The notes beneath the pieces are model-generated. The model made no database searches, was not told the origin of the DNA, and worked only from the letters and a program-made list of their open reading frames with translations. Below, piece after piece: positions 21,711 through 22,805 of a DNA stretch of 64,000 nucleotides; position 1 is the stretch's first letter, and the number at the start of each line of letters is the position of its first letter. Source of the stretch: a virus (taxonomy: Duplodnaviria; Heunggongvirae; Uroviricota; Caudoviricetes); the IMG/VR virus record IMGVR_UViG_2713896905_000004, positions 1-64,000 of that record; one strand, 5' to 3'. The position numbers and the translations under genes were made by a program.

Positions 21711-22805
21711 TCACGAGAAACTCTTTTCTGATGTCAGCCAACAGTGCTCGTGCATATCTCTTGGTGGTTTTTCGACAAATGCCTCTTCAGCCACATCCCG
21801 CCAGGGAATTTGTTTAGCCCATTCAGCTATAGCGTTATGGTTTGCTGAGAATAACGGTATTGTATAGGTTTTCAGCCAGGTTAATGTGCTGGAGTTGTGC
21901 TTTTTGGCGTGATGTTCCGCATGATGTTTGGCGATCACGAGCGTAGGCACTACCCATTTACTACCGTCAGTCATTGTGAAGTGCATATTACGGGGCACAG
22001 ATGATTTTTCCATCACCTCGCGGACACCGGGAAATTCCCCTTTGATCAATCGGCGATATTTATCGCTATTGCACCCACCAAACTCTTTGGCTTTGTATTC
22101 AAGATATGCTTCAGAAACGAGAGGTGAATCCTCTGTGCTGAGAGTTATAGCCGTGAAAATACCAGCAGGATTGTTCTCACTATGGGCCAACCGGTGATGC
22201 GAATCATAAAAATACCCTTTCTCTCGTTCCGATGGTTTCGACAGCAACAGCAGGCGCGAATCATAACCGGTCAAATTGCCTGTTATCACAGCATGAGCGC
22301 GGTCGCTGATTTCTGCCGCGTTAATAACGATGAAAAGATCATGCGGCCCAGTAAAACCAGCCAGAGATTCTTCGTTATTCAGACAATAGTTTAAATATAC
22401 ACATCCCCATGCTTCACTGATATGTACCAACCCTTTTTCAGGGTGCAGTTTGAAATGATTGCCAAGAAAAGGGTGTTTCTTGATAACCTGCGCCCAATAA
22501 CAGCACATATAGTCAATTATATTGTTTCGACTATCGTTAATAACAGGAGAAACAACCACGGTACGGGAACACGAATACAGTATTGTTTGCAGGATGCTAA
22601 TCACTGCCACAACAGAGGTTTCACCAATACCATGCGGTGTGGTGGCAGTGACTTTGGCTCCTGTGTTCTTTATCGCGTTAATAATTTTTGCCTGATGAGG
22701 TGTTAACTCAATATCAAGCAACTCTTTTGCTGCCAGTTCCCAATTGTCTTTATACCGTTCTATCAGTGCTAACCAGGCAGATTCATTCTGTATACGATTA
22801 ATCAC
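21711..22805 (-). CDS. PacB (large terminase) N-terminal ATPase-domain paralogue with degenerate Walker A/B, lacking the C-terminal domain
   Basis: Aligns by eye to the window's own pacB: '[59 protein letters not shown]' vs 'SLAGFTGPHDLFIVINAAEISDRAHAVITGNLTGYDSRLLLLSKPSEREKGYFYDSHHRL'; Walker A GHGTGKS replaced by PHGIGET. Confidence 0.7.
   Translation of the reverse strand: MINRIQNESAWLALIERYKDNWELAAKELLDIELTPHQAKIINAIKNTGAKVTATTPHGIGETSVVAVISILQTILYSCSRTVVVSPVINDSRNNIIDYMCCYWAQVIKKHPFLGNHFKLHPEKGLVHISEAWGCVYLNYCLNNEESLAGFTGPHDLFIVINAAEISDRAHAVITGNLTGYDSRLLLLSKPSEREKGYFYDSHHRLAHSENNPAGIFTAITLSTEDSPLVSEAYLEYKAKEFGGCNSDKYRRLIKGEFPGVREVMEKSSVPRNMHFTMTDGSKWVVPTLVIAKHHAEHHAKKHNSSTLTWLKTYTIPLFSANHNAIAEWAKQIPWRDVAEEAFVEKPPRDMHEHCWLTSEKSFS

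Follow-up and report, generated by a model that had tools for sequence, protein, structure and literature searches.

We analysed a 64,000-nt window, positions 1 to 64,000 of the IMG/VR record IMGVR_UViG_2713896905_000004, which is recognisable as a P1-like phage-plasmid from its darA, ddrA, ddrB, hxr, ssb, lyz, pro, prt, darB, pacA and pacB genes. On its minus strand, at 21711–22805, lies a 364-codon open reading frame (ORF) that we call the pseudo-terminase gene, since its product combines a catalytically dead paralogue of the ATPase domain of PacB, the large terminase of the same element, with a small C-terminal domain unrelated to the PacB nuclease. The first-pass annotation had placed this ORF in the ssb operon, and both the ORF and its location hold: the gene is co-directional with ssb, and a site resembling the operator of the C1 repressor lies upstream of ssb. 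Its GTG start codon is preceded by a GAGGTGG Shine–Dalgarno sequence located within the 3′ end of the upstream gene isaA, whose stop region overlaps the start by 8 nt, and a GTG-initiated ORF of 364 codons is likewise present in 20/20 P1-type loci of IMG/VR. The parts of the gene and the two true terminase genes are as follows.

21711–22805, minus strand: pseudo-terminase gene, whole; 364 aa, GTG start, TGA stop; from the ORF list, matching the PHROG family phrog_5902 at E = 3e-178
22026–22805, minus strand: N-terminal domain, aa 1–260; large-terminase ATPase fold, paralogous to PacB aa 1–259
22617–22640, minus strand: degenerate Walker A motif, aa 56–63; TPHGIGET where PacB has SGHGTGKS, lysine replaced by glutamate
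22431–22547, minus strand: hotspot of allelic variation, codons 87–125; the long helix 89–110 and the loop and strands that follow
22314–22337, minus strand: degenerate Walker B motif, aa 157–164; LFIVINAA where PacB has LLYIIDEA, Asp-Glu replaced by Ile-Asn
21714–21998, minus strand: C-terminal small domain, aa ~270–364, after a low-confidence linker at aa 262–267; unrelated to the PacB nuclease
44303–45787, minus strand: pacB, 494 aa; functional large terminase and parent-type paralogue, with intact GHGTGKS, IIDEAS and nuclease domain
45787–46980: pacA, preceding pacB

The relationship to PacB is unambiguous over the ATPase domain and stops there. Residues 11–259 of the pseudo-terminase align with residues 11–259 of the PacB of the window with 92/251 identities (37%, E = 3e-56, BLASTP), so the similarity proposed in the first-pass annotation is significant. 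That annotation had also described an alignment along the whole ORF and the loss of some 130 C-terminal PacB residues. The former is true of the first 259 residues only, as neither BLASTP nor a profile comparison (hhalign probability 0.3%) finds any resemblance to PacB in residues 260–364, and these comparisons also rule out the idea that the last 105 aa are a degenerate nuclease domain. The latter understates the loss, because the entire nuclease domain (PacB 260–494, ~235 aa) is absent.

An AlphaFold2 model built from 38 aligned sequences (mean predicted local distance difference test score, pLDDT, 86) supports the same division, with pLDDT above 90 over residues 1–260, low values in the linker at 262–267 and moderate values in the C-terminal module. 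The top 30 Protein Data Bank (PDB) matches of the model by Foldseek are all large-terminase ATPase domains, including those of Sf6 gp2, P74-26, D6E and T4 gp17 (E = 1e-8 to 1e-5; for the best of them, E = 1e-8 to 1e-6 with probability 1.0), and the ‘terminase large subunit’ family phrog_2 matches the protein at E = 5e-10.

Within this well-preserved fold, the residues that have been lost are the catalytic ones. The degeneration of Walker A (PHGIGET, lysine to glutamate) and Walker B (VINAA) noticed at first pass can be read directly in the sequence and in the alignments, and a conservation comparison between the pseudo-terminase group and close, true PacB-like terminases extends it: the pseudo group selectively lacks S56, G57, T60, K62 and S63 of Walker A, D161, E162, S164 and G165 of Walker B, Q190, T192 and R194 of the coupling motif, and H152. 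Kept in both groups are the hydrophobic core, Q38, G59, G61, the EExLAG segment and the lid and core motifs FY..HH, E.SP.V and GG...Y...G.F. To judge from these residues, normal binding and hydrolysis of ATP would be beyond the protein, and it can serve neither as a packaging motor nor as a nuclease. Fold, selective loss of catalytic residues and at least 12 likewise degenerate relatives together give good support to its description as a terminase-derived pseudo-ATPase.

It follows that the protein is not itself a terminase, for four of the five features that define a large terminase fail. It has the terminase-fold ASCE ATPase domain. It lacks the lysine of the Walker A GxxxxGK[ST] (PHGIGET), the glutamate of the Walker B hhhhDE (FIVINA) and an RNase H-like nuclease domain, and it has no small-terminase or morphogenesis genes beside it, being located in the ssb operon 21 kb from pacA-pacB, with pacA adjacent in 0/36 loci. 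GenBank records MH422554.1 and MH445380.1 (locus L001) nonetheless label it ‘terminase large subunit’, which is misleading because the real terminase gene pacB lies elsewhere in the same genomes; RefSeq calls it hypothetical. The annotation of a gene that cannot encode a large terminase is thereby corrected.

The pseudo-terminase belongs to a family. Initial word-index homology searches were nearly empty, and the family emerged only from an exhaustive HMMER search of 1.84 billion representatives, which returned 683 relatives. Among the best 150 of these plus earlier hits, which were classified by motif, 119 keep GK[ST] and [DE]E and are true terminases, and 19 rows are atypical; 13 of the 19, the window protein counted, are PacB-like and have neither the lysine of Walker A nor the Asp-Glu of Walker B. 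Twelve of these pseudo members form one clade in a neighbour-joining tree calculated from the ATPase domain (bootstrap 160/200), a grouping to which long-branch attraction may contribute. Monophyly of all 13 is unsupported, as P0047 is placed among the true terminases and seems to have lost the motifs independently. The window protein falls in the PacB-derived pseudo-ATPase clade, which is part of phrog_5902; the window and those D6-type contigs that extend far enough upstream also encode a true PacB.

The members vary in architecture: the N-terminal domain stands alone (~260 aa) in P0009, P0010, P0014 and P0015, is joined to a different C terminus in P0011 (444 aa), and is followed by the small domain in the window protein, P0001, P0002 and P0005. 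In P0021 the order is reversed, with the small domain first and the pseudo-ATPase second; a Tn3-family transposase gene, which lies on the other strand, truncates the P0021 gene (positions 8001–10384 of L012, an NCBI assembly contig). All pseudo members with readable genomic context lie in P1/D6-like phage-plasmids, the contigs of P0010, P0032 and P0047 being too short for informative context. P1-like elements also house more distant members among their early accessory genes: one directly follows a gene for a Ref-like nuclease, in an element that has a Cre-like integrase and a C1 repressor of the P7 type, and P0010 lies directly 3′ of an ssb gene. P0009 (264 aa, N-terminal domain only; L011 7027–8795) lies 18 nt 3′ of a gene for a 318-aa radical-SAM protein. 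Associated genes occur in about 5% of Avs2 operons, and one of them, Avap1, encodes a radical-SAM protein (PMC11564622); the parallel may be coincidence.

Across the pseudo members the Walker A lysine is replaced by E, R, H, T, M, I or C, and the Walker B Asp-Glu by IN, VD, MD, VN, LH, TD, PD, PN, PQ, DN or SK. Because the replacements vary so much, the catalytic pocket looks relaxed rather than re-specified for a new ligand. This bears on the possibility that the remnant P-loop acts as a ligand binder or sponge, holding but not hydrolysing an immune signal derived from a nucleotide, or some other small molecule, and so complements the Tad2-like sponge encoded nearby. Across the family, G59 and G61 of the glycine-rich loop are kept, as is Gln38, which contacts adenine, and the Tad2-like gene is close by. 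A conserved new site should not vary as the lysine and Asp-Glu positions do, however, and the glutamate at the lysine position of the window protein would repel phosphates. We regard ligand binding as very unlikely.

Several lines of evidence show that the gene is intact and maintained by selection. First, disrupted copies are rare. By megablast, the gene is full-length in 119 of the 120 PLSDB plasmids that carry it and in all of the 100 complete E. coli genomes (out of 5,426) that contain it, where it is annotated as protein-coding; three phage records carry it, one of them frameshifted near the 3′ end. The only disrupted copies seen are those of plasmid pEA13_2 (L007), split by an insertion of the IS4-family element ISEc60, and of phage vB_EcoM-813R1 (L002), in which a 1-nt deletion near the 3′ end, which may be a sequencing error, alters the last residues. 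In IMG/VR, 36/36 full-length loci are open from start to stop with the same degenerate motifs; 20 are P1-type (~90% identity), 13 are at ~52% identity and 3 at ~48%.

Second, apart from one patch, pairwise ratios of nonsynonymous to synonymous substitution rates (dN/dS) are well under 1:

Pseudo-terminase, against the four loci also used for isaA and ssb: 0.22–0.38
Pseudo-terminase, all allele pairs: 0.11–0.49
Small domain alone: 0.04–0.37
isaA, same pairs: 0.10–0.13
ssb, same pairs: 0–0.06
Codons 87–125, between allelic groups: 1.0–1.4
Rest of the pseudo-terminase gene: 0.1–0.28

Third, the codon usage index of the gene (0.77) is within the range of the other window genes (0.74–0.80) and above that of its two wrong frames (0.66 and 0.70). 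The gene is thus under purifying selection with one fast-evolving patch, and it evolves faster than its neighbours isaA and ssb. Amino-acid differences among close alleles cluster around this patch: in the segment that encloses it (aa 77–120), ~36% of sites are variable among seven alleles, compared with 7–18% in other segments. Codons 87–125 were picked after the data had been seen and hold few substitutions, so the hotspot is a lead and not a result.

These data dispose of the suggestion, made in the first-pass annotation, that the gene could be a domesticated remnant or a decaying pseudogene; across P1-like elements, in plasmids, E. coli genomes and viral contigs alike, hundreds of copies are retained intact, and a non-catalytic function is therefore probable. 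A functionless leftover of a pacB duplication, carried along with isaA, would account for a gene that is dispensable and absent from many P1-like elements, and for the one plasmid copy with an IS4-family insertion and the one phage record with a 3′ frameshift. Such a leftover should not, however, keep its frame in essentially all copies, including lineages only 48–53% identical, nor conserve its start codon and its coupling to isaA, and in another lineage the same small domain is fused at the opposite end of the protein. With selection and codon usage as they are, we consider a remnant scarcely credible.

The surroundings of the gene point to an accessory element expressed early. The relevant neighbours in the window are the following.

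21682–21705, strand not assigned: perfect 10-bp hairpin between the convergent ends of the pseudo-terminase gene and hxr; RNA fold −20.7 kcal/mol, z = −5.8
22798–23586, minus strand: isaA, upstream partner of the pseudo-terminase gene; 262 aa, 96.6% identical to P1 IsaA
23593–24294, minus strand: optional neighbour encoding a Tad2-like (DUF2829) fusion protein; 233 aa, Pfam PF11195, E = 2.7e-21
24309–24491, minus strand: orf60, a 60-aa ORF between ssb and the Tad2-like gene; from the ORF list, conserved in P1-type loci
24492–24980, minus strand: ssb, first gene of the operon; from the ORF list, 98–100% identical across P1-type loci and annotated in P1
25000–25016, minus strand: C1 operator-like site upstream of ssb, ATTGCTCTAATTAATTT, with 1 mismatch to the consensus; equivalent of P1 Op21/Ossb

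In an alignment of the window with P1, homology ends exactly at the isaA stop (window 22797) and resumes at the end of hxr (window 21677). The slot between isaA and hxr, filled here by the pseudo-terminase gene, holds 95 nt, IS1 and isaB in P1. We considered whether P1 IsaB might be a remnant or relative of the pseudo-terminase and rejected this, the two being alternative occupants of one slot; likewise, IsaA has no similarity to PacA, so the pair is not a duplicated pacAB operon. The isaA–IS1–isaB region is a hypervariable region of P1-like phage-plasmids (PMC9603915, PMC6906374), and the P1 genes at this locus are non-essential (PMC10695390). The pseudo-terminase gene is absent from P1, SJ46 and D6; SJ46 and D6 have isaA with nothing 3′ of it. 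Among PLSDB plasmids, 617 carry pacB, 406 isaA, 229 the Tad2-like gene and 120 the pseudo-terminase gene, which is therefore accessory cargo.

When full-length, the gene lies immediately 3′ of an isaA homologue, its start overlapping the isaA stop, in 36/36 IMG/VR loci and in two neighbourhoods. The P1-type order is ssb, orf60, (Tad2-like gene, in 3/20 loci), isaA, pseudo-terminase gene and convergent hxr; the D6-type order is cre ... dut, (Tad2-like gene, in 15/16), isaA-like gene, pseudo-terminase gene and, usually, convergent doc-phd. Because this adjacency recurs in two different neighbourhoods, isaA and the pseudo-terminase gene behave as a mobile two-gene module, often preceded by the Tad2-like gene.

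The Tad2-like gene is a clean insertion relative to P1. Its product carries DUF2829 in its C-terminal 95 aa, which match solved structures of Tad2, ModTad2, SptTad2 and AcrIIA7 (E = 1e-12 to 5e-7), behind an extra N-terminal domain of ~130 aa. It is the only one of the three neighbours to match an anti-defence family: the pseudo-terminase has no match in Pfam, NCBIfam or PADLOC, and IsaA has no family or structure match in these or in a PDB sequence search. IsaA has long been called ‘IS1-associated’; it occurs in the 406 plasmids counted above and in D6-like elements at 48% identity, and its gene usually follows a Tad2-like gene even where the pseudo-terminase gene is missing (SJ46, D6). P1 lacks the Tad2-like gene at this point, and the 320 aa annotated there as ‘IsaA’ apparently result from an in-frame fusion of the 60-aa ORF with IsaA.

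As for regulation, the P1 C1 operator consensus ATTGCTCTAATAAATTT has 13 matches in the window when as many as 3 mismatches are allowed, where chance would give 0.35. These sites, among them 25000–25016, 38645–38661, 41169–41185 and 57899–57915, map the C1 regulon of the element. P1 annotates Ossb/Op21 at the position equivalent to 25000–25016. Given the site before ssb and this annotation, the ssb operon, and the pseudo-terminase gene with it, should be shut off in the lysogen and come on early upon induction or infection. At the other end, the hairpin at 21682–21705 is likely to be a bidirectional terminator; a consensus terminator scan missed it because its T-run is weak.

The C-terminal domain leads to a different, and much more widespread, family. 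In a nine-sequence alignment, the last 95 aa of the window protein contain 15 invariant positions, with the pattern D, S, W, P, A, A, T-PLF, WA, W, A, W, and aa 272–361 match phrog_17928 (E = 2e-12). A profile search gave 930 clusters, nearly all of them standalone proteins of 96–105 aa, and no Pfam family. In lambdoid prophages the domain lies between replication genes and ninB; in the P1-like Cronobacter phage JK004 it lies two genes 3′ of dnaB; and in Xanthomonas CP2-like phages it forms the C terminus of a 471-aa DUF1351-like protein (phrog_17928) whose gene neighbours encode DUF2303, a recombinase, an exonuclease and a single-stranded DNA-binding protein (SSB). The domain is thus mostly a standalone early protein, present in many temperate phages, or part of the DUF1351-like fusion, and its fusion to a pseudo-terminase, N-terminal in one lineage, occurs only in P1/D6-like elements.

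These associations raise the possibility that the protein is an early accessory of DNA metabolism, a scaffold associated with DNA or SSB in replication or recombination, whose terminase-like domain would bind DNA without translocating and whose small domain would dock on replication or recombination proteins. The location in the ssb operon, the distant member P0010 directly 3′ of ssb, and the small domain close to DnaB in JK004 and in lambdoid prophages, or fused beside recombinase, exonuclease and SSB in CP2-like phages, all fit such a role. Neighbourhoods of this kind are, however, the early regions in which accessory genes collect; in D6-type elements the gene is not close to ssb; the whole locus is non-essential in P1 (PMC10695390); and neither a motif nor a fold for DNA binding was detected in the small domain. 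A scaffold of this kind is rather unlikely in our judgement.

No proteins of tailed phages are more conserved than the large terminases, which are also a main target of bacterial pattern-recognition immunity. The first-pass annotation suggested that the pseudo-terminase might be a packaging regulator or decoy. The gene studied here is accessory, absent from P1, part of an early C1-controlled operon, next to a Tad2-like gene and located in a variable region, and a role in conflict or as accessory fits these observations better than a core packaging role. Because it occupies a cargo slot in an early operon, has a Tad2-like neighbour and evolves faster than isaA and ssb, we favour a counter-defence function. 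Specifically, we propose, with a probability of roughly one in three, that the pseudo-terminase is an early, non-catalytic binding protein with a terminase fold that is used in counter-defence. Early in the lytic cycle, the C1-repressed ssb operon would yield, in translational coupling with IsaA, a PacB-derived, nuclease-less ATPase-fold domain flexibly linked to a small domain widespread among early phage genes. The protein would act by binding other proteins, rather than by moving or cutting DNA, either because its partner recognises the terminase ATPase fold or because the fold serves as a scaffold, with the tethered small domain providing a second contact, and it would belong with the Tad2-like protein and IsaA to an accessory counter-defence cassette.

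In a more specific version, the host factors engaged would be ones that detect the ATPase fold of terminases, for instance sensors of the Avs1–3 or Upx class. The protein might titrate or block these sensors before the real PacB appears; or it might perform an unrelated anti-defence task, invisible to sensors that read the terminase-bound ATP–Mg site. The terminase ATPase domain alone is a ligand and activator of EcAvs2 and Upx, and EcAvs2 reads the ATP and Mg bound by the terminase via a bridging ATP (bioRxiv 10.64898/2026.04.30.721860). The site so read is the one destroyed in the pseudo-terminase. T4 vs.8 and Ksap1/2 are predicted to sit in the same Avs2 pocket, and their authors suggest that they may be anti-defence proteins (bioRxiv 10.64898/2026.04.30.721860). 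The pseudo-terminase could be a mimic that neutralises Avs1–3 or Upx by occupying the pocket early; with neither the ATP–Mg site nor the nuclease, it would not license oligomerisation, and the PacB made later would be shielded. We hold this form of the proposal to be doubtful.

Several considerations weigh against a role in counter-defence. The binding partner is putative. T4 vs.8 and Ksap1/2 trigger Avs2 rather than inhibit it, and Upx needs no catalytic residues (bioRxiv 10.64898/2026.04.30.721860), so that early production of a further terminase fold ought, if it has any effect, to make the phage visible to Upx. The literature that could be searched describes no inhibitor of terminase sensors encoded by a phage. 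Adjacency to the Tad2-like gene is optional in P1-type loci (3/20) and may reflect a shared insertion hotspot alone. The hotspot at codons 87–125, defined post hoc and on few substitutions, could be a recombination mosaic. The neighbours of the small domain, which are replication, recombination and nin-region genes, indicate ‘early’ and not ‘anti-defence’.

Finally, all members with readable context lie in P1/D6-like elements that use a PacB-type terminase, which a packaging-type model with a cognate partner explains at least as well. In this main rival, the dead ATPase domain binds PacA, PacB or the portal and modulates packaging or competes with it, either restraining premature cleavage at pac or poisoning the terminase of a co-resident or superinfecting P1-like element. 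The protein has its closest relative in the PacB of this group of phages; both proteins conserve the N-terminal helices, the EExLAG segment and the lid region; and the loss of both ATPase and nuclease is how a dominant-negative subunit would be expected to look. On the other side, P1, SJ46 and D6 package normally without the gene, which is found in early ssb or cre–dut operons distant from pacAB and never adjacent to pacA, and is coupled to IsaA, which is dissimilar to PacA. Moreover, because the operon is C1-repressed, the product is probably missing from the lysogen, where exclusion would act. A packaging function is possible, though we think it unlikely.

The counter-defence reading can be set against known systems. 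PacB itself has the same ATPase-domain fold (37% identity over 250 aa), comes from the same phage-plasmid group and shares the N-terminal helices and the EExLAG, FYDSHH, EDSPLV and GG...Y...G.FP motifs. The pseudo-terminase differs in lacking the Walker A lysine, the Walker B Asp-Glu and the nuclease and in its degenerate coupling motif; it also has an unrelated C-terminal domain, is not encoded beside pacA, belongs to an early rather than a late packaging operon and is accessory rather than universal. T4 vs.8 offers a closer parallel, as a second, ATPase-domain-only terminase homologue in a phage that has a real terminase, and is likewise confined to one phage lineage; it keeps Walker A and B, however, derives from the T4 gp17 lineage and is a reported trigger of EcAvs2 (bioRxiv 10.64898/2026.04.30.721860), whereas the pseudo-terminase is catalytically degenerate, PacB-derived, fused to a small domain and coupled to IsaA. 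Ksap1 and Ksap2, which stimulate KpAvs2, are much smaller (Ksap1, 74 aa) and have no detectable terminase sequence homology (PMC11564622), in contrast to the unmistakable sequence paralogue with a full ATPase domain described here. The neighbouring relative of the Tad2/DUF2829 anti-Thoeris sponge shares the operon, predicted early expression and the status of optional cargo in the same variable region; it has no sequence or fold relation to the pseudo-terminase, and the link is positional only.

Our literature searches found no paper describing a P1 terminase paralogue, pseudo-ATPase or terminase decoy. The pseudo-terminase is a terminase-derived accessory paralogue and a viral pseudoenzyme. 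As a dead terminase ATPase paralogue that is selectively kept, in a cargo slot of a clinically widespread phage-plasmid family, it is a ready-made probe of whether phages counter terminase sensing or use terminase-fold interactions in other ways, and it gives a handle on the roles of isaA and of the unannotated family of ~100-aa small domains. Should the sensor-mimic version prove correct, the protein would become the first inhibitor of terminase pattern recognition shown to be encoded by a phage, acting by pseudoenzyme mimicry of the phage’s own conserved protein.

Two further observations were made in passing. Several true PacB-like terminases (P0054, P0061 and others) have large insertions in the Walker A loop, between GHG and TGKS, which look like inteins. 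In the window, DdrB (19693–21381, plus strand) has 562 aa, compared with 995 aa in P1, owing to an in-frame internal deletion that leaves P1 DdrB residues 1–12 and 448–995 at 97% identity; in several related plasmids, an unannotated gap of ~1.7 kb at the position of ddrB suggests that they carry the same short allele.

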